DNA of 57,565 nt from a virus (Duplodnaviria; Heunggongvirae; Uroviricota; Caudoviricetes). This document shows, piece after piece, positions 15,801-36,471 of this stretch. Within the stretch, counting starts at the first letter, position 1. Each line of letters begins with the position of its first letter. The stretch spans positions 104,845 to 162,409 of IMG/VR virus record IMGVR_UViG_3300025916_000008; one strand, 5' to 3'. A program made the position numbers and the translations under genes. The notes below the pieces were generated by a model. It was not told where the DNA came from. It did not search any database and saw only the letters and a program-made list of their open reading frames with translations.

Positions 15801-16219
15801 GTGCAGATCAGGTCGGACCCGTACTCCTCCAGCACCGCCCAGTCCATCCGGGGGCGGCCGTAGAAGCCGGAGACGTACGCCTCGGTGGATGCCGCCCACA
15901 GGTCGCGCAGGCCCCTGTCAGACTGCGCGAGCAGGATCAGGTGGTCGCCGTTGACGAGGCGCTTCTGCGCCTCCTTGTCGCCCTCTGCGGGCCGCAGGAG
16001 GCGGTCCGGGCGGAAGTACGCCTCGATGCCGAGGACGGGGTTGAGCCCGGCGGCGAGCGCCTCGCGCTGGAACTCGACGTGGCCGAAGCAGCCGCCGTGA
16101 TCGGTGACGGCCAGCGCGGTGCTGCCGTTGGCAGCCGCCCTGCGGACTGCCTCACGGCAGGTAGACAGCCCGTCAAGGGTGCTGTACTCGGTGTGGACGT
16201 GCAGGTCGGCGAAGGACAT
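12803..16219 (-). CDS. dnaE: DNA polymerase III alpha subunit (DnaE type, with PHP domain)
   Basis: HVHTEYSTLDG, GRGSAAGS, PDFDLDF, KLDIL, YAFNKAH; SD GGAGGGG before ATG 16219. Confidence 0.95.
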   Translation of the reverse strand: MSFADLHVHTEYSTLDGLSTCREAVRRAAANGSTALAVTDHGGCFGHVEFQREALAAGLNPVLGIEAYFRPDRLLRPAEGDKEAQKRLVNGDHLILLAQSDRGLRDLWAASTEAYVSGFYGRPRMDWAVLEEYGSDLICTTACLGGIIADDLLDAGRDNAAMERLLLKLDRLKSIFGDRLFLEMQGNDIPLQAVYNRALAEASGFMGIPLVATCDAHYPSEAETALHKTWMACQSGKGKEDYWNFSPMLTEKALRESLLSHGLDPGVVDRAIWNTGEIAARCDARIGGHAELPVFTPGGTAADDARALRAMIESRWSLVEGLGREYRERDEYEFEVVAQKGLAGCYLIVEDIIRFAREQGFLVGPGRGSAAGSLMSYVLGITSVDPIKAGLLFERFLTPGRMALPDFDLDFPTSARTPIQDYAVQRYGADHVVRVGTIMRYQAKGIVNKLASVYEDRYGSDVIADAKRVAKIIDEAEAGTAGLGLSWSEHMESPDMAEYLERYPELFRDAGVLCNRVYAQGQHPAGLIISPGRSLTGTMPMRHAKPGDTLLVSQWDYRAAEDLNLLKLDILTLRTLDTISMAIELVRERTGIQLDPRSWDAEHLDPQVYDAIDTGRTLGMFQIETPLCSDFARRMKPRTLAHLADLTTIIRPGPRNSGAAERYLARRAGREPVDYPHPLLEDMLSSSYGVMCYQEDVMRACKIVAGYSDLEADGVRKILGKKLVDKIDAAGEEFVRRSVERGHDEQVVSKMWEAMAEFGRYAFNKAHGFSYGVLSYWTAWLKEHYPAEFLCAVMSTVKKKSKKAGQEEGTDRLPEFVMEARRVGLTVLPPDVSYCQGGFTCHGITLRYGLLAIPTVGAAAVRKIVSAQPYSSYEDFVARSEVDAGVLYALARAGALDGLVPTRKGLVRLIEADRDGSLVRCVHKVDDPSGPGGLPCSLDWEQDLAEQRAAYDELMAPRLAEGRKPLKFVPKAPSSKCFRGCRRYTPPSVPGMAAWGEYTPPELFRSDLAAYGTWMSSAVFDQLDILHEGLREQAREMARSLVTAPSGTYPAAAVLADAHMAMTRKGSVMWWVKLLTEVSVLDLACFSPRRDTDLDVPSMLRGIRPGTLVQAEVRKRAYLSNGSHRMGWNLTAIYPLGG

Positions 16220-16238
16220 CGCCCCTCCGGGACTGCGA

Positions 16239-16275
16239 TGCCCGGCCGCGAGACAGCGTGTCTCGCGGCCGGGCA
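16239..16275 (-). terminator. Perfect 17-bp stem hairpin between the ssb-like gene and dnaE
   Basis: tgcccggccgcgagaca-gcg-tgtctcgcggccgggca. Confidence 0.65.
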
Positions 16276-16285
16276 CCAGGGCGGG

Positions 16286-18551: not shown

Positions 18552-20951
18552 TCAGCCGATCCCGTCGCTCGGCCGGACCAGCGCCTCCGGGAAGCAGGAA
18601 ACCCCGCCGCCCCGGTAGACGTCGAAGTACTTGCTGAAGCGGGGCGTGAACGCCTTGCGCGGCAGCGGCTTGAGGTGCTCCTTGCTGCACCAGTACTCGT
18701 ACGCCCCGTAGATGGCCCCGATGGTGCGCCCGGCGTCGCGCCTGTCCGGTGCCGCGCGGTCGATGCACGCGGCGATGAACTGCGCGATCGGGTCTTCCTC
18801 GAACTTGTAGGACTCGTGCGCCTCGCGGGCGGCGTCAGGCAGGCCCAGGCCGTCCTGGGACCAGGTGACGGCCCCCTCGACGATCCACCGCAGGATGCCC
18901 GAGGCCTCCTGGGCGAGGAGGCGCTGCTGGAGGGTACCGTCCCGCTCCTCCTCGGGGATGACCACATCCCAGGGGATGATCCTGATCCTGCGCCAGGTGG
19001 CGGCGTCGTCGGAGACGCCGGGCAGGTGGTTGGTAGTGACCTGGATCTTGCCGACCATCGCGAACTCGAACCACTCGGCTCGCATGTAGCGGGCGGCGAT
19101 GGTGTCTCCCCCGGTCAGCGCCTTGATCATCGGCTCGTCGAGCGGCCGTCCCTGCTTGGTCTCGCTGGCCGACAGGAACCGGCGGCCCGCCATGCGGGCC
19201 ACGTCGTTGGGGATGCGGTCGTCCAGGCCGGCCATCAGCGTGGACACCGGCATCGTCTGTGCGTAGCCGCCGAGCACGCGGGCGATCACTGCCTGGGCGA
19301 CGGACTTGCCGTTCGCCCCCTTCCCGTGCCAGAAGAAGATCGCTTGCTCGTCAGTCCGGCCGGTGGCGCAGTACCCGGCGATCCGCTGGAGGTAGCCCCG
19401 CATCGCCGGGTCGGGCTGCACCCGGCGCAGGAACTCGGTCCACAGCGGGGCCTCGGCGTCCGGGTCGTAGAAGGCCGCCGCCTGGAGCGTCATCCGGTGG
19501 TCGGGGGAGTGCTCCAGCAGCTCCCCGGTGGCCAGGTTGACGACGCCGTTCTTGCAGTTCAGGAACATCAGGTCGCTGTCGAAGGTGTCCTGGTTCATTC
19601 GCATGGCCGGCAGGTACATCGCCAGCCGGGCGGAGGCGCTCACGGCCTTCCTGGTCTGCTGCTTGCCGACCCACTCCAGGAAGCGGGTGCGCGGCGAGGC
19701 CATCTCCTTGTCGCCGTCGGTGGGCGCGTCGTCGGGGTCCTCCTCGTAAGCGAACGCCTCGGTCTCCGGCAGTGCGCGGATCATCGCGTTGGCGTACCGC
19801 TCGCCCGTGGTCACCTCGTCCCTGACCCACACGCCGTTCTGGTAGACGGCCCAGGTACCCCACTCCGGGACCCAGCGGAGCTGCTGCCCCCAGTGGTCGA
19901 CCATCCGGTCGGCGAGGCCCATCTCGGTCTGGGCGCGGCGCGGCCACTCGGTGCGCGAGGAACTCCACTGGACGTGCCGGGGATTCTCCACGCCGGCGTT
20001 CCACCCGGACAGGAACGTGGCCCTGACCTCGCCCGCGCCGAGCCCGGCGTCCTTCGCCGCCTCAGACAGCGAGGTCCAGGCAACCGACTCGTCCAGCAGC
20101 CCCGCCCCGCCGAGGGTGCCGAGGGAGAACGCGCACTCGTTGAGCACGGTGTTGCGGCTGCCGGGCGCGGCGTTGCGCATCTTCTCGCACTCGGCCCGCA
20201 GCGCCGCCTCGCCGTACTTGCGGTTGACCGCCCCGCCGGACTCCGGCGCGCGGCCGGCCAGCAGCTCGCCGGCCTGCTCCCGGTTGTACTGGGACAGCAG
20301 GTTCAGCAGCCACGGCGGTGCCTCCGTCGGCTCGATGTCCTGCCCGTCGTTCAGCTTGTAGATGCCTTTGGAGGACAGGGACGGCGGGGCGACGACGAAG
20401 CCGCGCTCGCCGCGCAGGTCCAGGCCCTGGCCCAGCAGGGTGCGGGCGTCATTGCGCACCTCGAAGCCGGGGTGCTTGAAGAAGTAGTGACGCCCCCCGC
20501 CCCCGGTGTGGTGGATGCGGGTCTCGGGCAGGTCGCCGTGCCGGTTCTCGTAGCCGGCCAGCCGGGCGTCGCCGCCGTTGTAGGAGTCGACGTCGAGGAC
20601 GAAGATCCCGCTCTTGCGGCCGGTGACGATCCCGATGTTGGCCAGGGGCCACCACTCCGACGGGTTGGGGTCCTCCGGCCGGGGACGCCACCAGTACGCC
20701 GCCTCGGTCGGGTCGGTGGTGGCCACGTCCGGCCACCTGAGGTGGACCGGGTGCTTGCCGGGGCTGGGGCACTCCGTGCCGTCGCGGCACGAGCACCTGT
20801 CGCCCTCCATCCAGCGCACGGGGATGACGGCGAAGCCGTACCTGTGCGCGTACATGGACGCGGCTGCGCACAGCTTCGCCCGGCGCGCGTCGTCGGCGTC
20901 GGAGATGTAGTTGGTGCCAAGGTCAGCAGCACCCTGGATGTCCTCGCTCAC
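18552..20951 (-). CDS. Bifunctional primase-polymerase fused to D5/P4-type SF3 helicase
   Basis: NIGIVTG..VLDVD..HTGGGGRHYFF..GLDLRGERGFVVAPPS; GKGANGKS; ASETKQGRPLDEPMIKALTGGD; start GTG 20951 overlaps the upstream TGA. Confidence 0.92.
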   Translation of the reverse strand: MSEDIQGAADLGTNYISDADDARRAKLCAAASMYAHRYGFAVIPVRWMEGDRCSCRDGTECPSPGKHPVHLRWPDVATTDPTEAAYWWRPRPEDPNPSEWWPLANIGIVTGRKSGIFVLDVDSYNGGDARLAGYENRHGDLPETRIHHTGGGGRHYFFKHPGFEVRNDARTLLGQGLDLRGERGFVVAPPSLSSKGIYKLNDGQDIEPTEAPPWLLNLLSQYNREQAGELLAGRAPESGGAVNRKYGEAALRAECEKMRNAAPGSRNTVLNECAFSLGTLGGAGLLDESVAWTSLSEAAKDAGLGAGEVRATFLSGWNAGVENPRHVQWSSSRTEWPRRAQTEMGLADRMVDHWGQQLRWVPEWGTWAVYQNGVWVRDEVTTGERYANAMIRALPETEAFAYEEDPDDAPTDGDKEMASPRTRFLEWVGKQQTRKAVSASARLAMYLPAMRMNQDTFDSDLMFLNCKNGVVNLATGELLEHSPDHRMTLQAAAFYDPDAEAPLWTEFLRRVQPDPAMRGYLQRIAGYCATGRTDEQAIFFWHGKGANGKSVAQAVIARVLGGYAQTMPVSTLMAGLDDRIPNDVARMAGRRFLSASETKQGRPLDEPMIKALTGGDTIAARYMRAEWFEFAMVGKIQVTTNHLPGVSDDAATWRRIRIIPWDVVIPEEERDGTLQQRLLAQEASGILRWIVEGAVTWSQDGLGLPDAAREAHESYKFEEDPIAQFIAACIDRAAPDRRDAGRTIGAIYGAYEYWCSKEHLKPLPRKAFTPRFSKYFDVYRGGGVSCFPEALVRPSDGIG

Positions 20952-21250
20952 CCCGCGCCTGCCAGGAGCTGGAGGGCGAAGAAGTCGTCCTGGCCCTCGG
21001 CGAAGCGCAGCGGGGTGACCGGCGCGCCGCGCCAGAAGCCGCCGTGACGGCCGAACGCTTCGGCGCACACGGCCATGGCCTTGTCAGCGCCGAAGCGGTC
21101 CCAGAACTCGCCGAGGATCTCCTCGGCGCGGGCGCAGGCCACGCTGGGGCCGGAGGTGCGGAGGATCTCCCCGAGCACGTACGCGGGGAATGACTCACGG
21201 GTAACCGCCACCTGAGGGGACGGCAAAGCAAAGTCCAGCGTCTGCGACAT
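20948..21250 (-). CDS. Hypothetical phage protein
   Basis: GTGA overlap with the primase start; typical codon bias. Confidence 0.65.
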   Translation of the reverse strand: MSQTLDFALPSPQVAVTRESFPAYVLGEILRTSGPSVACARAEEILGEFWDRFGADKAMAVCAEAFGRHGGFWRGAPVTPLRFAEGQDDFFALQLLAGAG

Positions 21251-23895: not shown

Positions 23896-24194
23896 GGCTT
23901 CACTCCGATGATGAAGGCGACGCACTGCTCCCAGGGCATCGGGTCTCCGGTGATCTCGTCGCTGGGAACGTGCACGTGAGGGTGCTTCGCGGTCCACGGC
24001 TCGAACAGGCCGCTGGGGGCGGCCGGGTCCCACTGCCCGGTGGTGAAGCCTGCGGGAAGGATGCGCCCGAGCCGCCGGCCGTCAGGCGCGATGACCAGGG
24101 CTAGGGCTGACCGGCGACCGGAGTAGGTCAGCCGCGCCCGGAGGAGACCGCCCTCCCGGACGGACGCCTCGGTGATCTTCAAGTTGTTCCTCAT
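23892..24194 (-). CDS. Hypothetical protein (start ATG 24194 or TTG 24182)
   Basis: Directly downstream of the promoter motif; GAGGA SD precedes TTG 24182. Confidence 0.55.
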   Translation of the reverse strand: MRNNLKITEASVREGGLLRARLTYSGRRSALALVIAPDGRRLGRILPAGFTTGQWDPAAPSGLFEPWTAKHPHVHVPSDEITGDPMPWEQCVAFIIGVKP

Positions 24195-24204
24195 AGGAGG
24201 AGTT

Positions 24205-24287: not shown

Positions 24288-25964
24288 CTACGACGCGGCT
24301 GCGGTGGTGTCCCAGTTCCTCTCGCCCTGGCGCGGGTTGAGGTGCTGCTCGCGCTCCTGGGCGTGCCGGGCCTTGAAGACCTCGAACGGGGTCTTGGCGG
24401 CGTCCTCCAGGCCGGCCGCGACCGGGATCAGGTCGCGCACGGCGTCCTTCACGGCGGCGTGGACCGGCTGGTCGTCCAGCTTCTCGGCGAGCCTGGTCAG
24501 CCCGTCCTTGACGGCGGTCATGATGTCGGGAAGGTGCTCAAGCATCGGGTCGACCCCGCCGTCCCCCATGACCGACGAGGGCTGGAAGCTGGAGAACAGG
24601 TGGCTGATCGCCTCGGTGGCGGCGTTGAGGGATGCGGGTGCTGCTGCCATGTCTGGTGTTCCTCCGGTGAATGTTGGCTGGTGCCGTGGGGGCACCGGGC
24701 CGGCGGAAGCCGGCCTCCTGAATGTCGCCGCAGCGCGAGGCGTCCGGTCCGCGAAGGGATCGGTCGGCGGCCTCATCGTGCTGGCAGGCGCTGGAGCCGG
24801 GGCGGCCGGAGCCGGTACCCGTCTCCTGTTTCTTGACAACCTTATCAAGAAACCCCGCATTGCGCGTCCTCTCCTGCGCATCCGGATACGAAGGCGCAGG
24901 AGCCGCATCTTCCTGGGCCGCACGGCCCTGCGCGTCTTGCGGGCCACCCGCCACCGGCCGTACCGGCGGACGTGGTGGAGAATCCACGGCCGGGAGAACC
25001 GCCGCAGCCGGTGCGGTCGCAGCGGCCTCGGCGCTCCCCGGCGGCGGCGCGGCCAGCGGAGCCGCGAGCCGCGTACCCGGACCCTCGGGGGTGCCCCGGC
25101 GCGGCGGCTCCGGCGGCGGGTGCCGCGCGGGGACGCGGCGCGGTGCCAGGGACGCCACCAGCTACGCCTGGGAGCGCCGTGCGGCGCGTGGCCGCCGTGC
25201 GGGGCCGACGGACGGGGAGACCGCCAGGACGGCGGCCGGAGCCGGGGCGGGACGAGCCTGCGCCAGCCCCGGGCAGCGCGCGGCGGCGTGTAGACTCCGC
25301 CGCGCGGCCGGGCGTGACGACCGGGACGGGGCAGCGCGCCGCCAGGGGCACGCGGGGTCCTGGTGCGGGGCGAGCCGAAGCGCGGGCTCCCTGTCCGCCC
25401 GGCACGGCCGGGACGGGGGAAGGACCCTCCCGCGCGGCGGCTGCCGCGCGAGCCGCCGGGGCTCCCGCCACGGCGGCGGAACGGCAGCCCGCGCCCCCCG
25501 GCGGCACGTCCCGCCTTAGGAAGGCCCGGGGAGCGCATCCGGGAGGCGGGCCTCAGGCCGCGCAGCGGGCCGCCGAGGGGACCACGGCGTGCCCCGCCGC
25601 CGATCCGCATGCCCCGGGGAAGGCGGCCCATGCCGCGACCCCCGGGGAGGCCTCGCGGCAGGCGGCCGGGGCGCATGCCGCGCAGGCCCGGGGGAAGGCC
25701 ACGGAGCCCCGGCGGGAGGCCTGGTCCCCGGCGACGGCCGCTGATGCGCCGCGCCGCCAGGAACACGACAGCCCCGACGCCGATGACGGCGGCGAGGGTG
25801 CCGGTGCTCCTCCAGCCGATGACGTGGCCGAGGCCGCCGATGACGGCGGCGAGGGCGAAGACCGCGATCCCGGCTCGCCTCACGAGAGGGAGCCGGGACC
25901 CGGAGCCGCCTCCTCCCCCGCGCGGCGGCGGGGGAGGAGGAAACGGCGGGAACGGGCTAGCCAT
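24288..25964 (-). CDS. Membrane protein (2 N-terminal TM helices, long Arg/Gly/Pro-rich region) with a C-terminal plasmid-spread-type domain that can be translated separately from ATG 24650
   Basis: TM segments GIAVFALAAVIGGLGHVIG and TLAAVIGVGAVVFLAA; coupled to the upstream stop; internal SD GGAGGA before in-frame ATG 24650. Confidence 0.6.
   Translation of the reverse strand: MASPFPPFPPPPPPRGGGGGSGSRLPLVRRAGIAVFALAAVIGGLGHVIGWRSTGTLAAVIGVGAVVFLAARRISGRRRGPGLPPGLRGLPPGLRGMRPGRLPRGLPGGRGMGRLPRGMRIGGGARRGPLGGPLRGLRPASRMRSPGLPKAGRAAGGRGLPFRRRGGSPGGSRGSRRAGGSFPRPGRAGRTGSPRFGSPRTRTPRAPGGALPRPGRHARPRGGVYTPPRAARGWRRLVPPRLRPPSWRSPRPSAPHGGHAPHGAPRRSWWRPWHRAASPRGTRRRSRRAGAPPRVRVRGSRLRWPRRRRGAPRPLRPHRLRRFSRPWILHHVRRYGRWRVARKTRRAVRPRKMRLLRLRIRMRRRGRAMRGFLIRLSRNRRRVPAPAAPAPAPASTMRPPTDPFADRTPRAAATFRRPASAGPVPPRHQPTFTGGTPDMAAAPASLNAATEAISHLFSSFQPSSVMGDGGVDPMLEHLPDIMTAVKDGLTRLAEKLDDQPVHAAVKDAVRDLIPVAAGLEDAAKTPFEVFKARHAQEREQHLNPRQGERNWDTTAAAS
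24843..24860 (-). promoter_or_regulatory. Intragenic variant motif ATGCGG-N6-TTGATA with -10 TAAGGT
   Basis: AT-rich patch in an otherwise extremely GC-rich ORF, about 190 nt upstream of internal ATG 24650. Confidence 0.5.
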
Positions 25965-27222
25965 GGTTCTGATTGCCTCCTGGGAGAGTTCCGGCGGGAG
26001 CGGCGATGAAGGGGCCGGCGGCGGCGGGGCGGCCGACCAGGCGGACCGGGGGGTCGGCCGGGCCTGCCTTGCGGGCGGCGAGCAGCGGCTTGGCCTGGCG
26101 GCGGTGGTCGTGCCTGTCGCAGATCATCCGGGCCAGCTCCCGCTCAGGCGGGAGGGCCGAGATGGGAAGCTGGTTCAGGTGCTGCGCCCACTGGTCAAGG
26201 TCAGCCTGCGAGATCTCGTGAGAGATCATCTTCGGCTGCGCCTTCAGGGCGGAGATGGCGCGGACGGTCTGGCCGTTCACCTGCGTGCCAGGCGACGGCG
26301 CGACCGGGCCGGGCGGCGCGACCGGGAGCTGCGCCACTGCTGGCGCAGGTGCCTGCGCCACCTCTGGCGCGCCGGCTGGCGCGGGTGCCTTGGAGCGCGC
26401 CACGACCGCTGCCCTAGCGTCCTGGCGCGCCACGCTCCTGGCGCGCCGGTCGACGCGGCGCATCTCGATCTCCAGGCGGCGCGCGTCGCGGCCAACCTGG
26501 TAGTCGCAGATGGCGCGCTTCGGGTCGGTCTCGCCCGCCCAGGCTGCCTGGGACATGACCCGGACGGAACGCCACGGGTGCCAGAAGACCCGGTTGGTGC
26601 CGAGGCGCACGGCGTGCCCCTCGACCAGGCCGAGCGCCATCAGCTTGTCGCGGCTGACCCGGCGGGTGTGGACGCCCCACAGCCACGGGCTGATCGCGGA
26701 CATCAGGAACATGCCGACGGCCATGAAGGTGGGACGCAGGTGGGGGGCCGCGTAGTGGCTGTAGTTCATGCAGCCCATCACCAGGGCGAAAGCGTAAGCG
26801 GCCAGCTTGATGCGGGTCGAGGTGTCGTTCGCCATCGTCGCCTGGTGGGCCTGCCACGCCAGGTAGACGGCAACCGACTCGAAGGTGACGGCAACCAGCA
26901 CCTGGCCGATGAGCAGCCACGGCACGTGATCGCGGATGAAGAAGAACTGGCCGATGAAGGCCGTCGCGTTCACCATGACCACTGGCACGGCCGCGCCGAG
27001 CGCCGGCGCGGCCGTGCGCCAGAAGGAGCGCCAGCGGGGGTGCGCCGCCGCGCCGCGCTGGCGCGCCGTGGCGCGCCGGGCCTGGCGCGCGTCGATCCGG
27101 GACTGGCGCGCCGCCTGGCGCGCACCGCGCCGCGCCGCTTCCCTGCTGTCGTCCGCTGCCTGGCGCGCCTGGCGCAGTTCCTCCTGCGCCTTCTGGTAGG
27201 CGATCTTCTCGTAAGTTTCCAC
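25957..27222 (-). CDS. Spd-like (DUF2637-type) multi-pass membrane protein with coiled-coil N-terminus and C-terminal HTH-like segment
   Basis: VNATAFIGQ..FESVAVYLAWQAH..AYAFALVMGCMNYSHY..SAISPWLWGVH; SD GAGGAGG before GTG 27222. Confidence 0.7.
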   Translation of the reverse strand: METYEKIAYQKAQEELRQARQAADDSREAARRGARQAARQSRIDARQARRATARQRGAAAHPRWRSFWRTAAPALGAAVPVVMVNATAFIGQFFFIRDHVPWLLIGQVLVAVTFESVAVYLAWQAHQATMANDTSTRIKLAAYAFALVMGCMNYSHYAAPHLRPTFMAVGMFLMSAISPWLWGVHTRRVSRDKLMALGLVEGHAVRLGTNRVFWHPWRSVRVMSQAAWAGETDPKRAICDYQVGRDARRLEIEMRRVDRRARSVARQDARAAVVARSKAPAPAGAPEVAQAPAPAVAQLPVAPPGPVAPSPGTQVNGQTVRAISALKAQPKMISHEISQADLDQWAQHLNQLPISALPPERELARMICDRHDHRRQAKPLLAARKAGPADPPVRLVGRPAAAGPFIAAPAGTLPGGNQNHG

Positions 27223-27264
27223 TGGAGTCCTCCTCGTGCGTGCTAGTTCCTTGCGGCTACAAGA

Positions 27265-27282
27265 TATCAAGAAAAGCTGTAT
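27265..27282 (-). promoter_or_regulatory. ATACAG-N6-TTGATA motif with extended -10 TGaTATCTT driving the spd-like operon
   Basis: About 43 nt upstream of GTG 27222. Confidence 0.6.
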
Positions 27283-27322
27283 CGTGTCTACTAGATCTGA
27301 CACGCTGCAAGGTGAGTCACGG

Positions 27323-27342
27323 TGCGCCGGGTACCCGGCGCA
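27323..27342. repeat. Perfect 20-bp palindrome TGCGCCGGGTACCCGGCGCA in the spd/traB divergent intergenic region
   Basis: Self-complementary when read directly; further CCGGCGC copies at 27373 and 27396 and reverse GCGCCGG at 27356. Confidence 0.7.
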
Positions 27343-27489
27343 GGACCCCTGGGACGCGCCGGGAGAGTGTGACCGGCGCGCCACCAGGGAATATCCCGGC
27401 GCGTGCCACAGTCTTCAATATCTGGAAAACTAGATAAGTCACAGTAACGGTCACACGCCGCGCCACACCCGCGCCACAGGAGAGAAGAA

Positions 27490-29511
27490 GTGCACGAGGA
27501 ACCGCAAGGGGGCTACGCCAAGCACGGCCACCCGGCAGAGACAGTCGGCCTTGCCGCCGTGGCGGCGCTCGGCCTGGAGGCCCTGCTGCCTGCCGTAGGG
27601 GCACCGGGATGGGTGCTGCCCGCGACGGAGATCATCGCGGGCCTCGGCACCGGGGTGGTTACCTGGGCCGGCACCGGCCGGATGCTGTTCCCGGCCTTCC
27701 TCGCCGCCATCGGCTCCTTCCTCGGCGGGTGGACCATCTACGCGCAGGTGGCCGGCCTGTGGCACTGGAACGTGATCGGCACCCTGATGGCCGGCACGGC
27801 GGCGCTCACCCCGCTCGGGGTGTTCTCCTGGCACAGGCGGAACCGCCGCCAGAACCCGTTCGACGGGCCTCCGGCCATCCTGGCGGTCCCCGAGCCCTTC
27901 GCGCTCCCCCCGCAGCCGGACGAGAACGAGCTGGAGATGCGCCGGTTCGAGATGATGCTGACGGACTTCGGGCTGGGCGACGAGAAGAGCCCCCTCACCG
28001 TCACCTCGCTGACCGAGGAGCGCTCCGGGCGCGTCGTCCGCTTCACGCTCCCCCTGTCGGGGAAGGTCACCATCCAGCACTGCCGCGACCAGGCCCGCAA
28101 CATCGAGGTGCGGATGCGCGCCGACGAGGGGGCGGTCAGCTTCGAGCGGGACGGGCCGTCCAGCAACGTGCTCATGCGGATTCGCGAGCGGGACGGGCTG
28201 TCGGAGTCGCGCACGCTCACCCCCGAGCTGCGCGCCACCACGTGCAACAAGCCGATCCTGGTGGGGTACCAGGAGGACGACACCCCGCAGCTCATCACCG
28301 TCCGCGAACTGCACACGATGATCGTCGGCACCACCGGCAGCGGGAAGTCGAACTTGCTCAACACCATCGTCACGCAGCTCGCCTGGTGCCCGGACACCAT
28401 CATCTGGGTCATCGACATGAAGGGCGGCCGGTTCGCCCGGCCGTGGTTCCAGGCATGGTCGGAAGGCAAGGCCATCGCCCCGCCGATCGACTGGCTGGCC
28501 ACCACGCGCAAGGAGGCCGAGCAGATGATGCTCGCCCTCCCGGCCGCCGTGGACGCCCGCTCCAAGAGCGGGATCGGCGGCAGCAAGATCATCCCGTCCG
28601 CTTCGATGCCGCAGATCCTCATGATCTGCGACGAGACGGCCGTCCTGCTCGGCACCGAGCGCGGCGGGCGCGCCCAGATCCAGGCAGACGAGAAGACCAA
28701 CACCTGGTTCGGCGAGCAAGCCGTCACGGTCGCCCAGATGGGCCGGTCAGAGGCGGTCGGGACCATGTGGGCAGGGCAGCGCGGCACCCAGTCGATGGCC
28801 GGCCCGAGCGACCTGAAGGCGCTCACCGACCAGCGCATCGCGCTGCGGCCCTCTTCCATCGACGAGCTTCAGTGGGTTATCCCTGATACCTACTTCGCCG
28901 GGGCGCAGCTCGCCTACCTCGCCGAGACCCCGGGGGTCGGGGTGGTCGCCAGGGGCAAGAAGGCCAGCCAGATCGTCAAGTTCCTGCACCATGACCACAT
29001 CGAGGGCGTGTGCGGGACCGACGAGAACGATCCGCGCTGCCCTCCGGAGTGCCCGATCTACCGCAGCGCCGTCGAGACAGCGCCGGTCCGGCCGCGCCTG
29101 GACCGGCTGACCGCCAGCGCCATCGGGCAGCCCTACGCCCGGCGGTGGGAACGGGCGGCCGAGAGCGGGGTCCTCCGGGTCCCGCAGACAGCGCTCCGGC
29201 CCGTTCCCGTCTCCCTGTCGGGCGGCGGGGACGCTGCCCGGTTCAACGACATCATCTCCGGCCTGAGCGACCCGGAGAGGGACCTCCACCCCGGACACAT
29301 CCGCATCCGGGAGCTGCTCGCGGCGCGCGGGGTAATGGGAGCCAGCGTCTCCCAGATGATGTCCGTGCTGGAGCAGGAGGGGATCAGCGGGGTGCGGGAG
29401 AGCGTGCACCGCTGGCTGCGGAGGGACCGCGACGACGGGCTCCTGCACCACCCCAGCTACCGCCGCTGGGTATGGGGGCCGGGGGAGAACACGCCCGACG
29501 ACGACGATTAG
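27490..29511 (+). CDS. traB: TraB-like FtsK/SpoIIIE conjugative dsDNA translocase
   Basis: N-terminal TM helices; HTMIVGTTGSGKS; WVIDMKGG; LMICDETA; GRSEAV..GQRGT; C-terminal winged-helix-like RESVHRWLRR. Confidence 0.85.
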   Translation: MHEEPQGGYAKHGHPAETVGLAAVAALGLEALLPAVGAPGWVLPATEIIAGLGTGVVTWAGTGRMLFPAFLAAIGSFLGGWTIYAQVAGLWHWNVIGTLMAGTAALTPLGVFSWHRRNRRQNPFDGPPAILAVPEPFALPPQPDENELEMRRFEMMLTDFGLGDEKSPLTVTSLTEERSGRVVRFTLPLSGKVTIQHCRDQARNIEVRMRADEGAVSFERDGPSSNVLMRIRERDGLSESRTLTPELRATTCNKPILVGYQEDDTPQLITVRELHTMIVGTTGSGKSNLLNTIVTQLAWCPDTIIWVIDMKGGRFARPWFQAWSEGKAIAPPIDWLATTRKEAEQMMLALPAAVDARSKSGIGGSKIIPSASMPQILMICDETAVLLGTERGGRAQIQADEKTNTWFGEQAVTVAQMGRSEAVGTMWAGQRGTQSMAGPSDLKALTDQRIALRPSSIDELQWVIPDTYFAGAQLAYLAETPGVGVVARGKKASQIVKFLHHDHIEGVCGTDENDPRCPPECPIYRSAVETAPVRPRLDRLTASAIGQPYARRWERAAESGVLRVPQTALRPVPVSLSGGGDAARFNDIISGLSDPERDLHPGHIRIRELLAARGVMGASVSQMMSVLEQEGISGVRESVHRWLRRDRDDGLLHHPSYRRWVWGPGENTPDDDD

Positions 29512-29512
29512 G

Positions 29513-30202
29513 TTAGCGCGGGCGCGGCGGGATGCCCGCCTGGGCGGTGACCCGGCTCACCTCGTCGGCGAGGGGGCCGCGCTCGCTCTCGGCCGCCAGG
29601 AGCTGGGCGGTCACGTCGCGCACCTGGGCGGCCAGCTCGTTGACCCGGCCGACGCGGGCCACGCCGTCGTCGTGGAGCTGGGAGAAGTGCGCCATCCGCG
29701 CGCCGGCCGCCTCGTCCACGGCGGCGGCACGGGCCGCCGCCTCGTCGGTCATCCGCTTCGCGTCGGCGCGGGCGCTGGAGATCAGCGAGTTCGCCTGGGA
29801 GCTGGCGCTCCGGTGGCTCTCGTCAGCCTGACGGCGGGCGTCCTCGATGATCTGGGCTGCCTGCTGCTCGGCCCCGGCGATCATCTCGGCGATCTGCTGC
29901 TCGGCCGCCGCCTGCTGCCCGGTCACCTCGTCTGCCACTACCTGGAGCACCTCCCACATGAGCTTGCGGCCGGCCGGGCTCTGAGCCGCCTGCACGACCT
30001 CCGCCCCGCCGTGCTGGAGGGCTACCGCAAGCTCGTGGCCGAGGCGCTCGATCTCCGTACGGGCCTCGGCCACCCACTGGTCTACCTGGCCCCGGTGGTA
30101 ACCGCGCTGGGCGATGTCGAACCCGGCGGCGCTCACCGACGCAGTAGGCAGCGCGGAAAGGGCGGCGGTACCGGACCGGGACGTCGGCTGCGGCATGGTC
30201 AT
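29513..30202 (-). CDS. DivIVA-domain coiled-coil protein
   Basis: FDIAQRGYHRGQVDQWV matches the DivIVA N-terminal F....RGY...EVD motif; followed by an Ala/Gln-rich coiled coil (EQQAAQIIEDARRQA). Confidence 0.75.
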   Translation of the reverse strand: MTMPQPTSRSGTAALSALPTASVSAAGFDIAQRGYHRGQVDQWVAEARTEIERLGHELAVALQHGGAEVVQAAQSPAGRKLMWEVLQVVADEVTGQQAAAEQQIAEMIAGAEQQAAQIIEDARRQADESHRSASSQANSLISSARADAKRMTDEAAARAAAVDEAAGARMAHFSQLHDDGVARVGRVNELAAQVRDVTAQLLAAESERGPLADEVSRVTAQAGIPPRPR

Positions 30203-31283: not shown

Positions 31284-32276
31284 CTAGAAGCGCACGACGG
31301 CGGACGCGGTAAGCGCCGTCTTGGTGTCGTTCCGCTGGAGCTTCACCGTGGTCACCCCGCCCCACGCGCGCCTGAACACGACGCTGGTCGCCTGCCCGTT
31401 GTGAAGCGGGAAGCTGAGCTGCTGGGCGGTGGACCCGTCGGTGAACCAGGCGGTGGCGGTGACCACCGACCCGGTATCGCCGGCCACGGCGATGCGGAAG
31501 TCCGTGCTGGGGAACATCTCGGCGACGGGGACGATGACGGCGAGGTCGCCGGCGTGCAGGGGGACGATCATGCCTGGCTCGGCCACGGCTGGCTCCGGGG
31601 TGGGTACGGGCGGGGGCTTGGGGGCCGGGGGCTGCGGCAGCACGTGGGAGGCGAGCTGGGGGGCGGTCCCGGGGAAGGCCGAGCAGTCAACCGGGCCGGA
31701 GATGCCGGCCACGGAGGCGCTGGAGGTGAACTGGAGCATCAGCGGGGTCTTGCCGCCGTACGGTGCCCACCAGGAGGCGGGGACCTGCTGGTAGAGCACG
31801 CCGGGGTCACCGGACCCGTTCACGTACTCGCTGGCCCACAGCCAGTCGAAGAACGACAGGTCCATCCCGCCCGTGTACCAGTGCGGGCAGTACCCGCCGA
31901 TCGGGTGCCCCGGGTAGAGCCTGCGCAGCTCGGTCACGCAGTCGAGTGCCTGCTGGCGCGTCGGCGAGCCGGAGGGAGAGCGCTCCAGGTCGACGGCGAT
32001 GCCGAATCCCCCCAGGTCGCCCGCCTCCGAGGCGAAGTACTGGGCCTGGGCCGCCCCGCCCGCCCCGGCGTCCAGGAAGAGGTAGGCGACAGGGACGAAG
32101 CCGTGCGCGGCCACCTGGCGGAGCCCGGCCTTGGACGCGCTCCAGGCGGGGTTGGTGTACCCGGTGCCCTCGGACACCTTCTCCGCGCCGCCGATGCAGA
32201 CGGCGGACACCCGGTTCCATGCAGGGACGCCCTGGTAGGACGAGCAGTCCACGAAAAAATTGGTAGTCCCGGTCAC
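31284..32276 (-). CDS. Endolysin, GH25 muramidase with Pro-rich linker and C-terminal domain
   Basis: VDCSSYQ, KVSEGTGY, IAVDLE, LWASEY, LQFTSSASVAGISGPVDCS; start GTG 32276. Confidence 0.88.
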   Translation of the reverse strand: MTGTTNFFVDCSSYQGVPAWNRVSAVCIGGAEKVSEGTGYTNPAWSASKAGLRQVAAHGFVPVAYLFLDAGAGGAAQAQYFASEAGDLGGFGIAVDLERSPSGSPTRQQALDCVTELRRLYPGHPIGGYCPHWYTGGMDLSFFDWLWASEYVNGSGDPGVLYQQVPASWWAPYGGKTPLMLQFTSSASVAGISGPVDCSAFPGTAPQLASHVLPQPPAPKPPPVPTPEPAVAEPGMIVPLHAGDLAVIVPVAEMFPSTDFRIAVAGDTGSVVTATAWFTDGSTAQQLSFPLHNGQATSVVFRRAWGGVTTVKLQRNDTKTALTASAVVRF

Positions 32277-32290
32277 ACCCCTTCCGGGGG

Positions 32291-32665
32291 CTACGGGAGG
32301 ATCAGGCCCCCGGGGGAGTCCTTGTGGCCGTTCGACTGGGCGCGGGACCGGGCGCGCTGCTCGTCGGCCTCCGCCTGGCACCGCTGGTACAGCCCGTAGA
32401 CCAGGGTGTTCACGTTCCCCTGGTCGGCGTCGGGGTCAGCCAGCGGTGCCATGTAGAGGATGTGGTCCGTCCCCGCCGCCGCCCAGTCGACCGGGACGCT
32501 GACGGCGACCATGTAGGCCAGGTTCATGCCGCCGCCGGACCTGTCGGGCAGGAGGGCGGGAGTAAGCTCCCAGCCGATCTTCTCGCGGACCACCGCGAGC
32601 ACCGGCAGGCTGTCGATCGCTGCGGCGACCTTCGCGCCGATGGCTTCCGAGATCCGGTAGGGCAC
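32291..32665 (-). CDS. Hypothetical protein
   Basis: Starts immediately after the SNF2 stop; typical codon bias. Confidence 0.6.
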   Translation of the reverse strand: MPYRISEAIGAKVAAAIDSLPVLAVVREKIGWELTPALLPDRSGGGMNLAYMVAVSVPVDWAAAGTDHILYMAPLADPDADQGNVNTLVYGLYQRCQAEADEQRARSRAQSNGHKDSPGGLILP

Positions 32666-34243
32666 TCAAACCGCCTTCCTGGGCCGCGCCTGGGCGTACA
32701 GCTCCCTGCGGTCGTCGGCCGTCACGTAACCGTCTGCCTCGTCATCATGCAGCATGTAGTCCTGGGTCGCATTCCGGGCGAGGACGCTGCTGAGGTTGGA
32801 CGTGACCTCGATGGACGATTCGAGGACGAAGGTGACGAAAGTCAGCGGGTTCACCCGGCCGAGGCGGTGCCCCCGGCTGGCCCGCTGCACCCTGGTGGAG
32901 TGCTTCCCGGCGGCGTCGTACTCGACGATCACGTCAACGAACGGGACGTTGATCCCCCGGGCGGCGGCGTCGCTCACCAGCAGGACGGCCCCGCCCTCAT
33001 AGGCCTCGAACGCGGCGAGCTGGCGGTCCCGCTCGGCCGGGGTCATCCCGCCGTGGTAGGTGAACACCGGGCGGTCGCCCAGCCGGCGCTGCAAGGCTGG
33101 CATCACCGTGTGGGCGAAGAAGGTGAAGACCATCATCTTGCCGCCGCCGGCCATCACGATGTCGGCCGTCGAGACCAGTTCCTGGGCCTTGGCCGAGGAG
33201 CACTTCTCCAGGTCGCCGCCCAGCTCCTCGGCGATCATCGCCAGGAACTCCGACTCCCCGTTGCGGGCCGCCTCCAGGATGGCGAGCGGGTCACCGGCCA
33301 GCAGCCGCAGGGCGAGCTGGAGCCCGGCGGGGGTCTCGACGCGGTTGCCCTTCTCGTCCCAGGCCAGGTCCTCCAGCATCCGGTAGAGCTTGTACTGGTC
33401 CTCGTGCATCCGGATGCGGCGGAACTCCTCCAGCAGCGGCGGGAACGAGTCGCGCACATCGGGGTCGCTCTTGCGCTTACGCAAGATCCACGGGTCACAC
33501 AGCTCGCGGAACCACGCCATCCCGTCGGGCCGGTAGGAGGGACGCCCCCACGGGTCCCGGCTGCGCACCACCCGCTCGTCGAACTCCTTCACCGTGGGCA
33601 TGACGCGCGGCAGGACCACCCGGAACTCGTTGAACATGCCCTCCAAATCGCTGTCCATCGGGGTGCCGGACAGCGCGATGACGCGGGTCTCCCTGCACGC
33701 CTTGCGGAGCTGCTCCTCCAGCCACTTGTGCGCCTTGTAGAGCTGGGAGGACCGGCCGTGCCCGATCTTGGTCACCTCGTCGTAGACGAGCATGACCCTC
33801 CTGCCCGCGAGGGCCTCCAGCAGCGGCCCGGGGCGCTGCGTCCGCGACCGGCTGCCCTTCTCCGGGGCGACCGCCGCGTCGGTGCGGCAGGTCTCGTACG
33901 TGGTGACCAGCGCCTGGGGCAGGCCGTCCAGCAGCTTCTTGCGCTTGGGGCCGTGGTAGAGCCCCGCCGACAGCCGGGTGAACCGCGCGAGGTCGCGCAT
34001 CCACTCGCCGAGCTTGTTGACCTCGCAGCAGAAGATCACCAGGTCGATGTCCCCGTGCTCGAATGCGACGGCGGCGGTGCCGAGGGCCATCACGCTCTTG
34101 CCGAGCCCCATGTCGGCCGCCAGGACCGCTCGTCCCATCAGGTACATCCTGGCGATGAACTGGTACTGCCAGGGGATATCGTAGGTGGGCTTGAACAGCA
34201 CCCCGGGGGGCCACTCAGGATGGGGTTCTCCCAGCTCAGGCAT
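32666..34243 (-). CDS. SNF2-family (SF2) helicase/ATPase
   Basis: LAADMGLGKS, LVYDEV, ALSGTP, LVSDAAARGIN, QRASRGHRLG; real start ATG 34243 (the track extension is antisense to dinG). Confidence 0.85.
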   Translation of the reverse strand: MPELGEPHPEWPPGVLFKPTYDIPWQYQFIARMYLMGRAVLAADMGLGKSVMALGTAAVAFEHGDIDLVIFCCEVNKLGEWMRDLARFTRLSAGLYHGPKRKKLLDGLPQALVTTYETCRTDAAVAPEKGSRSRTQRPGPLLEALAGRRVMLVYDEVTKIGHGRSSQLYKAHKWLEEQLRKACRETRVIALSGTPMDSDLEGMFNEFRVVLPRVMPTVKEFDERVVRSRDPWGRPSYRPDGMAWFRELCDPWILRKRKSDPDVRDSFPPLLEEFRRIRMHEDQYKLYRMLEDLAWDEKGNRVETPAGLQLALRLLAGDPLAILEAARNGESEFLAMIAEELGGDLEKCSSAKAQELVSTADIVMAGGGKMMVFTFFAHTVMPALQRRLGDRPVFTYHGGMTPAERDRQLAAFEAYEGGAVLLVSDAAARGINVPFVDVIVEYDAAGKHSTRVQRASRGHRLGRVNPLTFVTFVLESSIEVTSNLSSVLARNATQDYMLHDDEADGYVTADDRRELYAQARPRKAV

Positions 34244-34249
34244 GTCCTG

Positions 34250-34302
34250 ATAATACCAGGGGAATGTCCCGGTAAGCGGTTGCAATACAGGATCTATTGA
34301 TA
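34250..34302. promoter_or_regulatory. Divergent promoter pair: minus-strand extended -10 TGgTATTAT (leaderless SNF2) and plus-strand ATACAG-N6-TTGATA (dinG)
   Basis: TATTAT at 34255..34250, 6 nt before ATG 34243; motif at 34285..34302. Confidence 0.6.
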
Positions 34303-34360
34303 ATAGGATAGGGTCATAGCCCCCGCGCGGGGGCGAACTTGAGAGCCAGGAGGAAGAGCC

Positions 34361-36424
34361 GTGACAGACATCGCCGAGCCCCAGGTCACCGCCCCGCTCA
34401 CCTTCGCGGAGGCCCAGGAGGTCCTCGCCGCGAACCTTCAGGGGTACGCCCGCCGGACCCACCAGATGGCGCTCGCCGAGATGATCGAGGGGGTCCTCGC
34501 AGGCGGCGGCCACGGGATCGCCCAGGCGGGCACCGGGACAGGAAAGTCCCTCGCCGCCCTGATCACGCACATCATCGCCGGGCTCCGCCTCAAGGACGCC
34601 GGGCTCCCCCACCGGACGGTCATCGCCACCGCGACGAAGGCGCTCCAGGGGCAGTACGCCTCCAAGGACCTCCCGTTCCTGGAGCAGTACCTGGGGGTCC
34701 CCTTCAAGTCGGCCGTCCTCAAGGGCCGCTCCAACTACCCGTGCCACCTCAAGATCGAGGAGCTGGACAGCCCGAACGCCGCCCAGCAGCAGGTCATCGC
34801 CCGGGTCCAGGAGATCAGCACCGACGAGGCCGTCAGGGAACTCACGGTCGTCGACCGGGAGAGCTTCCCCGGGATCAGCAGCGCGGACTGGAGCGCGTTC
34901 TCCATGTCGGCGGACGAGTGCCCGGGAAAGAAGGACTGCCCGTTCGGGGGCGTGTGCATCACCGAGCGCGCCAAGGCGAAGGCGGCAGACGCCGACGTGG
35001 TGGTGACCAACACCTCCTACCTGCTCCAGGACCTGATCCTGCGCAAGCGGTCTGACGGCAACGTGCAGCTCCTCGGCGAGATCGGCCGCATCGTCGTGGA
35101 CGAGGCGCACACCCTGGCCGAGGTGGCGCGCGGCGCGCTGGAGGACACCATCGGCCAGGGCAGCCTCGCCAAGATGGCCAGGGACATGAGCGCTTACATG
35201 CAGCGCGAGAAGCTGGACCACTCCCTGGCGTCGCAGGTCGAGCGGTCGGCCGCGTCCCTCTGGGAGCACCTGGAGTACGTCTACCGCACCTGGATGCGGG
35301 AGAAGAACTACGGCTCCGCCGACCCGATGGCCCTGTCCGAGCACGCGCTCATGATGGACTTCGGCTCCTACTTCATCGACCTGATCGAGGCGCTGTCGCG
35401 GGCGCGGGACGAAGTTAACTCCAAGCGCGCCTCCGACGACCGGCAGAAGCTGGCCAAGACGCGCATGCTGCGCCGCTCGGCCAACATGCTCGACCGGCTG
35501 GTGGCCTACGCCGGCTCGCCGGAGGGCGAGACGGTCCGCTGGGCCGAGCTGGAGGTCAAGATGTTCCGGGGCCAGCGGCACGAGCGGGTCCTGCTCTGCT
35601 CCTCCCCGGTCGACGTCGGCCCGTTCCTGCGCGACCTGCTCTGGGAGGAAGTCCCCACCATCCTGATGTCCGCCACCCTGGCGGTCGGCGGCAGCTTCGA
35701 GTTCACCGAGGCGAACGTCGGGCTCCGCAAGGGCGAGGCCGTCGCCTACAGCGCCGGCTCCCCGTTCGACTACCCGAAGCAGGCCGTCCTGTTCACCCCC
35801 GACAAGGACCGGCCCGAGCCGCTCCAGAAGACGATCGTGGCGTGGAAGGCCTACGCCCAGGCCGCCACCCGGCAACTGGTCAGCGCCTCCGGCGGCGGCG
35901 CGCTGCTGCTGTTCACCTCGCGCACCGCCATGAACGAGGCCTACGGCGCGCTCGCCGGCGACTTCCGGGACCAGGACCTGACAGTCCTGAAGCAGGACGA
36001 CTCGACGCCGGGCGAGCTGGTCCGGATCATGAAGGAAAACGGCCACGCGGTCCTGTTCGCGCTCAAGACCTTCTTCGAGGGCGTCGACATCCCCGGCAGC
36101 GCCCTGCGCCTGGTGGTGCTCGACAAGCTGCCGTTCGTGCCCCCCACGGACCTGGTGCACAAGGCGCGCGAGGAGGCGGTAGCCCGCCGGTACGGCACCC
36201 AGCGGGCAGGCTTCGACCACCTCTCGGTCCCGGAGATGACCCTCACCCTCACCCAGGCCTTCGGCCGGCTGATCCGCAGCACGTCCGACCGTGGCGTCGT
36301 GGCGATCCTCGACTCGCGCCTCAGCACCAAGGGCTACGGGCGCAAGATCATGGAGTCGCTCCCGCCGGCCCGGCGCACCAGCGACCTCAGGGTCGCGGCG
36401 GAGTTCCTCGCCACCTGCCGGTAA
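34361..36424 (+). CDS. dinG: DinG/YoaA-family Fe-S helicase
   Basis: QAGTGTGKS, LKGRSNYPC, ECPGKKDCPFGGVC, VVDEAH, MSATL, FEGVDIPG, QAFGRLIRS; SD AGGAGG. Confidence 0.92.
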   Translation: MTDIAEPQVTAPLTFAEAQEVLAANLQGYARRTHQMALAEMIEGVLAGGGHGIAQAGTGTGKSLAALITHIIAGLRLKDAGLPHRTVIATATKALQGQYASKDLPFLEQYLGVPFKSAVLKGRSNYPCHLKIEELDSPNAAQQQVIARVQEISTDEAVRELTVVDRESFPGISSADWSAFSMSADECPGKKDCPFGGVCITERAKAKAADADVVVTNTSYLLQDLILRKRSDGNVQLLGEIGRIVVDEAHTLAEVARGALEDTIGQGSLAKMARDMSAYMQREKLDHSLASQVERSAASLWEHLEYVYRTWMREKNYGSADPMALSEHALMMDFGSYFIDLIEALSRARDEVNSKRASDDRQKLAKTRMLRRSANMLDRLVAYAGSPEGETVRWAELEVKMFRGQRHERVLLCSSPVDVGPFLRDLLWEEVPTILMSATLAVGGSFEFTEANVGLRKGEAVAYSAGSPFDYPKQAVLFTPDKDRPEPLQKTIVAWKAYAQAATRQLVSASGGGALLLFTSRTAMNEAYGALAGDFRDQDLTVLKQDDSTPGELVRIMKENGHAVLFALKTFFEGVDIPGSALRLVVLDKLPFVPPTDLVHKAREEAVARRYGTQRAGFDHLSVPEMTLTLTQAFGRLIRSTSDRGVVAILDSRLSTKGYGRKIMESLPPARRTSDLRVAAEFLATCR

Positions 36425-36438
36425 CCCACGGCAAGCAC

Positions 36439-36471
36439 AAGGGGCCACTCTCGTCGCCAGAGTGGCCCCTT
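36439..36471. terminator. Bidirectional 13-bp stem terminator between convergent dinG and tail-fibre genes
   Basis: aaggggccactct-N7-agagtggcccctt. Confidence 0.75.

Follow-up and report, generated by a model that had tools for sequence, protein, structure and literature searches.

A 57,565-nt stretch of viral DNA, called the window throughout (bases 104845-162409 of the 162,409-bp IMG/VR virus record IMGVR_UViG_3300025916_000008, rated complete by CheckV), carries at positions 24,288-30,202 a group of genes that looks like a membrane DNA-translocation module belonging to a clade of ~136-165-kb actinomycete phages. The group consists of a TraB/FtsK-like double-stranded DNA (dsDNA) pump (P0001), a divergently transcribed membrane protein with remote likeness to DUF2637/SpdB proteins (P0002), a second membrane protein (P0003) ending in a domain here named P3C, and a DivIVA-like coiled-coil protein (P0004). 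We show what these parts are and how they are built, and document their conservation, their promoter and the linkage of their genes. As the phage stably inherits a DNA pump module of plasmid type, it may spread through the mycelium without virus particles. We regard a module serving such virion-free spread, partial versions of it included, as an even call.

The pump and its family

In the AlphaFold2 (AF2) model of P0001 (predicted local distance difference test score, pLDDT, 82.7), four transmembrane (TM) helices lie within residues 8-115, followed by a linker, a beta domain, a RecA-type ATPase at ~275-500 and a winged helix at 601-662 (helix-helix-helix-strand-strand). All 34 homologues compared keep Walker A (G280, G283, G285, K286 and S287; GxxGxGKS) and Walker B (D381, E382) unchanged, and the winged helix is conserved as well. 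All elements of the TraB architecture, namely an N-terminal membrane anchor, an ATPase with intact Walker motifs and a C-terminal winged helix, are thus present in this protein. The TM-ATPase-winged helix-turn-helix (wHTH) translocase that the original prediction had read from the letters alone is borne out by the model, by the Walker motifs and by the top-ranking fold in Swiss-Prot, which is that of pIJ101 Tra.

The family scans point in the same general direction. P0001 scores 27.1 bits against Pfam FtsK_SpoIIIE (PF01580; cut-off 24), confined to the Walker A region, where DUF87 and TrwB also match weakly, and it matches phrog_31069 'FtsK/SpoIIIE-like' with an E of 1.7e-26. A sequence search of the PDB returned P-loop-level matches only. 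Foldseek searches of the PDB recovered the coupling protein TcpA of pCW3 and the FtsK motor at E about 1e-15 (for the FtsK motor E 1.8e-15, TM-score by target 0.58-0.68). Among the Swiss-Prot models of the AFDB, pIJ101 Tra ranked first (E 4.4e-21, residues 38-671) and TraSA of pSAM2 eighth, the remaining matches being FtsK; in sequence, P0001 and pIJ101 Tra share 24% identity across 220 residues. By Pfam score and modelled motor fold, P0001 is classed as a predicted member of the FtsK/SpoIIIE superfamily.

Chromosomal FtsK/SpoIIIE proteins share with P0001 the motor fold and the combination of TM helices, motor and winged helix, whereas P0001 is phage-encoded, lacks the long linker and gave no match to FtsK_gamma (PF09397) in Pfam. 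We rejected an identity as chromosomal cell-division FtsK on the missing gamma domain and on a tree that separates host FtsK.

A search of 1.84 billion representatives with a profile of the pump family yielded 586 clusters (50% identity) at E<=1e-30, most of them matching over the full length. The sampled relatives in phages include L099 (a 164.6-kb phage), L100 (a temperate phage of 35.7 kb that has genes for an integrase and a capsid) and the phage-like contig L101. Cultured carriers are the Streptomyces phages Hiyaa, Keanu, Galactica and Spocter, as well as ZL12 and Thermobifida phage P1312; the genomes of Hiyaa, Keanu, Galactica, Spocter and P1312 measure ~60-83 kb and their pumps are 25-27% identical to P0001. 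Actinobacterial matches among 50,697 phage records were confined to phages of Streptomyces, Thermobifida and Saccharomonospora, with none in Mycobacterium, Gordonia or Rhodococcus phages. Annotations of Streptomyces phages routinely list FtsK-like translocases, and the P1312 paper suggests only 'DNA segregation'. Pump relatives also occur in Streptomyces phage-plasmids with a terminase gene, for example a 99-kb S. atratus plasmid that encodes a strong DUF2637 protein near the pump; Hiyaa, too, has a DUF2637-type gene nearby.

Two sets of relatives outside the phages are of particular relevance. Group A, found in metagenome-assembled genomes (MAGs) of Streptosporangiaceae and uncultured Actinomycetota, is 32-45% identical to P0001 over its full length and is flanked, for example, by genes for enoyl-CoA hydratase and HxlR, or for Ppx and Rho. 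In at least 33 MAG contigs (among L009-L044; e.g. L024:7174-9470 and L029:7625-9875), a P3C-like protein of ~115 aa is encoded directly upstream of the pump. These two-gene chromosomal cassettes are the nearest cellular relatives of the phage pump, and their link to the phage pump subfamily is one of the points that set this case apart from known ones. Group B comprises the Tra proteins of integrative and conjugative elements of actinomycetes (AICEs) from Actinomadura and Spirillospora, which are 25-30% identical across the ATPase. After their tra gene come one for an excisionase-like HTH_17 protein and one for a tyrosine integrase, and no adjoining P3C gene was detected.

A quick maximum-likelihood tree of 50 rows, with host FtsK as sole outgroup, placed P0001 in a clade of 160-kb phages (support 100), inside a 12-row clade with L099, L100 and unplaced metagenomic rows (98). 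The 12-row clade lies beside Group A (99), and a 40-row clade (99) adds the pumps of Hiyaa and the S. atratus phage-plasmid. Most of the sampled Actinomadura and Spirillospora AICE Tra proteins form the nearest neighbouring clade (100), pIJ101 Tra and host FtsK fall outside, and starred branches part host FtsK from the P0001 clade. A grouping of P0001 with chromosomal, chromosome-segregating FtsK, for which the original prediction had asked a phylogeny, is therefore not supported by this tree. As far as the tree and profile scores tell, the P0001 clade is made up mainly of phages, phage-plasmids and Streptosporangiaceae-like MAG cassettes and is distinct from the plasmid_TraB family.

Inheritance, partner proteins and control regions

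The order primase, 5'-3' exonuclease, DUF7229, DUF7239, P0003 and P0002, then on the opposite strand the pump, followed by the DivIVA-like gene, Gp80, GH25 and SNF2, is common to the related genomes L002 (a 161.7-kb IMG/VR phage), L003 and L102 (a 136.5-kb contig), whose pumps are 54%, 83% and 40% identical to P0001. The ratio of nonsynonymous to synonymous polymorphism (pN/pS) is 0.36-0.52 for all four genes P0001-P0004. Hence, the module is present at the same locus in relatives, and these comparisons support a conserved part of the phage lineage that is vertically inherited under purifying selection. The view that the phage has domesticated the module, rather than hosting an independent AICE, stands on this synteny and selection.

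P0002 starts later than first read. Because a GGAGG ribosome-binding site (RBS) precedes a GTG at 27225 and the promoter lies upstream, its true start is placed there, and the open reading frame (ORF) of the first reading (25957-27384) is too long. P0002 itself matched neither DUF2637 (PF10935) nor any other Pfam family even at E<=10, and a six-frame search of the genome for DUF2637 was likewise empty. At the family level, a DUF2637 match was obtained for 8 of 34 members (best E 1.3e-5). In the AF2 model (pLDDT 80), the chain begins with a long helix, continues as a membrane core of helices and ends in a small helical domain; DUF2637 proteins were the top Foldseek matches (rank 1 with E 1.2e-8) and an entry named 'Protein spdB' came 27th, at low TM-scores of 0.2-0.3. 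A jackhmmer run started from the S. atratus DUF2637 protein found itself only. P0002 is thus linked to DUF2637/SpdB indirectly, through its family and its predicted fold. Of the earlier claim of a divergent DUF2637/Spd-like protein, the divergence and this family-level likeness are retained, while a Pfam match of the protein itself and the original start are not.

P0002 also appears linked to the pump beyond the immediate relatives. Its homologue Hiyaa gp98 (E 3e-16) is encoded near the Hiyaa pump and another lies near the pump of L099, so that the pairing is kept in a distant phage with a pump of 30% identity. On a linear plasmid of Streptomyces sp. NBC_01553 (L005, 6669-12939), a P0002-like membrane domain forms part of a protein of 851 aa; the same region encodes GntR, WhiB, ParM, a short 'TraB' and an 'ATP/GTP-binding protein' of 720 aa. 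This setting ties the P0002 family to plasmid transfer regions.

P0003 accounts for the second membrane protein that had been expected in this operon, as judged by its two hydrophobic stretches. Its start overlaps the stop of P0002 by 8 bases, which suggests translational coupling. The spacer of P0003 is low-complexity and very GC-rich; nevertheless, the frame is real, because every indel against the 78%-identical relative L003 is a multiple of 3, substitutions fall mostly in third positions, pN/pS is 0.39 and, in L102, one gene of 654 aa is called in the same position.

The C-terminal P3C domain occurs directly upstream of pump genes, either as a stand-alone protein of ~115 aa or as the C-terminus of a protein of 451-766 aa. 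By tblastn and jackhmmer, its carriers are every Group A cassette (at least 33 chromosomal) and, beyond these, L100, L101, L102, Hiyaa gp101, the S. atratus phage-plasmid and pZL12.72c. No match was found in Pfam, NCBIfam, PHROG or PADLOC. P3C is, on these searches, the most consistent genomic partner of the pump subfamily, and its place as constant neighbour of the pump, pZL12 included, is newly described here. A smeA-sffA-like origin was considered and not adopted: SmeA is a membrane protein, and the P3C translation has no hydrophobic stretch.

P0004, whose gene is convergent with that of the pump, keeps this position in L002, L003 and L102. It is possibly an accessory part of the module and, given its weak DivIVA and Wag31 matches, might direct the machinery towards septa or the tips of hyphae.

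The promoter of the P0002-P0003 operon includes the motif ATACAG-N6-TTGATA at 27265-27282 (minus strand) with 0 mismatches. Nine copies with <=2 mismatches occur in the window against 0.53 expected, and the copy upstream of the P0002-like gene is kept in L002, L003 and L102, in agreement with the earlier claim that the spd operon is read from a phage-type promoter. A further copy lies inside the P0003 ORF, upstream of P3C; L002 and L003 have it at the corresponding site, whereas L102 lacks it. This conserved motif hints at a separately expressed short form of P3C, for which it is a possible internal promoter. In L003 (5788-6720), an extra gene for 310 aa lies exactly at the motif copy downstream of P0003 (window ~24185-24204).

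The 264-bp divergent intergenic region between P0002 and P0001 is far more conserved than the adjoining genes. It holds, between a putative pump promoter and the RBS, five G[TC]CACA[GC] heptamers, a cluster that is unique within the 162-kb genome, where G[TC]CACA[GC] sites number 20 per strand. The array has six copies in L002 and is partly kept in L003. It may represent a candidate operator or a candidate clt-like loading site; scans for direct, inverted and tandem repeats revealed no att-like repeats and no classic clt. Between the two promoters, at window 27330-27400, this conserved region also has GC-rich inverted repeats (CCGGCGCGCC ... GGCGCGCCGG-like arms), which could act as an operator or form a structure in RNA.

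Possible functions of the module

The TraB/Spd systems of pSVH1 and pIJ101 share the TM-ATPase-wHTH pump design with P0001. Common to such plasmids (PMC4447253) and the phage are an SpdB-like multi-helix membrane protein with an N-terminal coiled coil and a translationally coupled operon divergent from the pump. SpdB2 is a pore-forming and DNA-binding protein of 409 aa with a coiled coil at 1-99 and four TM helices (Thoma et al. 2015, PMC4447253), a description with which the modelled helix layout of P0002 agrees. In contrast to the phage, a P3C-domain partner is not described for the TraB/Spd plasmids; the phage, in turn, has no TraR/GntR regulator and its clt-like site is only a candidate. 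Hiyaa has all three parts, namely gp98 (P0002-like), gp101 (stand-alone P3C of 122 aa, hidden Markov model (HMM) E 4e-35) and gp102 (pump).

Among the closest parallels is also the plasmid-phage pZL12, whose conjugal transfer is reported, in the part of PMC3583192 that cites Zhong 2010 (J Bacteriol 192:3747), to need tra and two adjacent genes. As here, pZL12 has a tailed-phage genome with an adjacent membrane protein of ~400 aa, a long P3C protein (pZL12.72c, HMM E 3e-20) and a TM FtsK-like pump (pZL12.71c, 24.9% identity to P0001, tblastn E 5e-11). However, pZL12 is a 90-kb circular plasmid-prophage with co-directional genes, whereas the phage genome is 162 kb, its module is divergent and it has no integrase or ParA/ParB matches.

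We hypothesize that P0001 would act as a hexameric-type pump, held by its four-TM anchor and loaded on phage dsDNA during infection, for which the heptamers that precede its gene are a possible site. It and the SpdB-like P0002 would jointly move replicating phage genomes over hyphal cross-walls or contacts into neighbouring compartments, with P0003 as a membrane-tethered component and with P0004 possibly included. Infection would thereby be extended without virions, as TraB and Spd spread plasmids and as the pZL12 three-gene region reportedly transfers. The recurring pairing of P3C and pump in Hiyaa, the S. atratus phage-plasmid, L100 and pZL12 supports such spread. So do the pump's build and catalytic motifs, the family and fold link of P0002, the synteny and pN/pS values, the genes reportedly needed in pZL12 transfer, the place of P0001 in the tree, the range of actinobacterial hosts among the matching phage records and the conserved heptamer array. 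We infer that virion-free spread is the best-supported mechanism and a plausible one. Its most specific form, in which virulent-looking actinomycete phages of ~160 kb would use pump, SpdB-like channel and P3C adaptor across cross-walls with the heptamer array as loading site, a bacterial-virus counterpart to the movement proteins of plant viruses, is put forward tentatively and seems rather doubtful in all its details.

Several observations weigh against virion-free spread. P0001 scores 32.5 bits against NCBIfam NF041214 plasmid_TraB (E 3.2e-8, residues 190-359), where the cut-off is 800, and the six-frame genome search gave 34.1 bits; with the pump in a separate clade, the label 'Streptomyces-type TraB' had to be given up in its family sense. 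Group A cassettes sit amid housekeeping genes with no integrase and no SpdB-like gene, and with such cassettes as nearest cellular relatives the pump subfamily need not serve conjugation. The deep order of the tree is uncertain because of long branches and the single FtsK outgroup. Aligned by hhalign with single sequences of pIJ101 SpdB and the strong DUF2637 protein, the P0002 family reached a probability of <1, and with that of pZL12.73c one of 0.4. The latter protein precedes the P3C gene in the matching position but has no detectable similarity to P0002, no match to the A1 HMM and no Pfam family. The heptamer array is absent in L102 and could be merely an operator, and a genome-wide scan of over-represented 8-mers for words like KOPS (FtsK-orienting polar sequences) or TRS (TraB recognition sequences) gave nothing above noise (z<=3.4). 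Finally, in a virulent-looking genome with no integrase, ParA or ParB match, plasmid-like transfer would have no obvious stable end state.

Part of this evidence would fit other functions. P0001 might work at closing septa in the manner of SpoIIIE/FtsK, pumping genomes into prespores or newly septated compartments, so that spores or dormant cells would carry the phage along, and not between hyphae or compartments already established. Its fold is that of FtsK-type septal pumps, FtsK/SpoIIIE-like genes are found in many phages of the spore-former Bacillus, the nearest cellular relatives are chromosomal cassettes rather than mobile elements, and a gene for a DivIVA-like protein adjoins the pump. 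We nevertheless consider segregation unlikely, as the pump is linked to a DUF2637/SpdB-like protein from a family tied to plasmid spreading (PMC4447253), the related gene set of pZL12 is reportedly required in conjugal transfer in the account cited in PMC3583192, and P0001 branches apart from host FtsK. A role in host takeover or exclusion, where the pump would expel or block incoming plasmid or phage DNA or anchor phage replication at the membrane instead of carrying phage genomes from cell to cell, is in our judgement quite improbable. It would agree with the PHROGs class of related phage proteins ('moron, auxiliary metabolic gene and host takeover'), with a weak likeness to HerA-type defence ATPases limited to the P-loop, and with a genome in which no genes for lysogeny or plasmid maintenance are seen that would give conjugal transfer an obvious use. 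Yet, because PADLOC matches to any defence family stop at the P-loop, a defence-system reading is unsupported; moreover, homologues keep the winged helix, the phage's own DNA bears a unique repeat array beside the gene, and the module is homologous to plasmid-phage transfer regions.

Least credible of all is a separate AICE or conjugative plasmid that was recently inserted and travels as a passenger with no phage function. Its genes are of the kinds found in conjugative elements of actinomycetes, and GC rises locally at 24-27 kb to 0.76 against ~0.70 in the window. This rise, however, is explained by the low-complexity coding spacer of P0003 that sits there. The explanation is effectively refuted by the identical location among phage genes in relatives with pump identities down to 40%, by the lack of integrase, rep, GntR and att repeats, and by an operon under the phage's own promoter motif, itself kept in relatives. 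Repeats of att type were not found at the flanks of the block, and recombinase and GntR matches were absent genome-wide, in line with the original statement that rep, integrase, TraR and att repeats are missing here.

If virion-free spread is what the module provides, phages could spread among mycelial bacteria by a second route that needs no particles and escapes receptor loss, cell-wall barriers and extracellular inactivation. Our view of how plaques form in actinomycetes, of host range and of the evolution of phage-plasmids there would then change. The idea of virion-free spread is itself already published: SpdB2 homologues on actinophages have been proposed to aid the spread of phage DNA (Thoma et al. 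2015, PMC4447253), a suggestion that our results extend. What is distinct here is the large, apparently non-temperate carrier clade, the inclusion of P3C in a three-part definition, and the heptamer array. The three-part set with its cultured counterparts in Hiyaa and pZL12, the P3C domain and the candidate cis site offer handles for further work.

Genome setting

Coordinates of the module and of nearby phage genes are collected in the table below.

Table. Features of the module and neighbouring phage genes, in window coordinates
Feature	Position	Strand	Remarks
P0001, TraB/FtsK-like membrane dsDNA translocase	27490..29511	+	673 aa; family scans, AF2, Foldseek, tree
P0002, remote DUF2637/SpdB-like integral membrane protein	25957..27225	-	422 aa; start from promoter and RBS
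P0003	24288..25964	-	558 aa; two hydrophobic stretches near the N-terminus, a spacer rich in Arg, Gly and Pro, and P3C at the C-terminus
P3C domain (P0003 residues ~436-558)	24288..24659	-	~115-120 aa; tblastn, jackhmmer
P0004, DivIVA-like coiled-coil protein	29513..30202	-	229 aa; weak DivIVA and Wag31 matches
P0002-P0003 operon promoter, sigma-70-type	27261..27290	-	TAGACA, 18-nt spacer, TG-extended TATCTT
Promoter-motif copy inside P0003 ORF, upstream of P3C	24843..24860	-	one mismatch
Five G[TC]CACA[GC] heptamers	27405..27480	+	last four ~12 bp apart; between putative pump promoter and RBS
DnaE-type polymerase	12803-16276		phage gene near module
Primase-polymerase/D5	18552-21068		phage gene near module
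GH25 lysin	31284-32381		phage gene near module
SNF2 helicase			phage gene near module; family scan
Baseplate J	44067-45887		phage gene; NlpC/P60 protein also encoded

The carrier is apparently a non-temperate soil phage of filamentous high-GC bacteria (window GC ~70%). No tyrosine (PF00589) or serine (PF00239) recombinase and no GntR, ParA or ParB match was found in the whole 162-kb genome. A DNA search of the block against cultured phages gave no match, and tblastn with the 753-aa ORF at 53521-55782 and the SNF2 gene retrieved no useful cultured relatives. The nearest cultured homologues of the baseplate-J protein are in ~155-kb Mycobacterium phage records. Phage genes thus surround the module as originally described, and the contractile-tail setting claimed at that time finds indirect support in baseplate J; the tail sheath model PF04984 gave no match. 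A myovirus identity is therefore no more than likely, its support being baseplate-J homology.

The minus-strand ORF of 1260 aa at 32666-36448 is probably over-extended, its SNF2 and Helicase_C matches being confined to the last ~500 residues. At this locus, relatives have an SNF2 gene of ~512-528 aa, followed by a plus-strand DEAD/Helicase_C_2 gene of 679-687 aa. The latter corresponds to a plus-strand ORF at 34361-36424 that is rich in GC at third codon positions (GC3) and is preceded by a copy of the promoter motif at 34285-34302.

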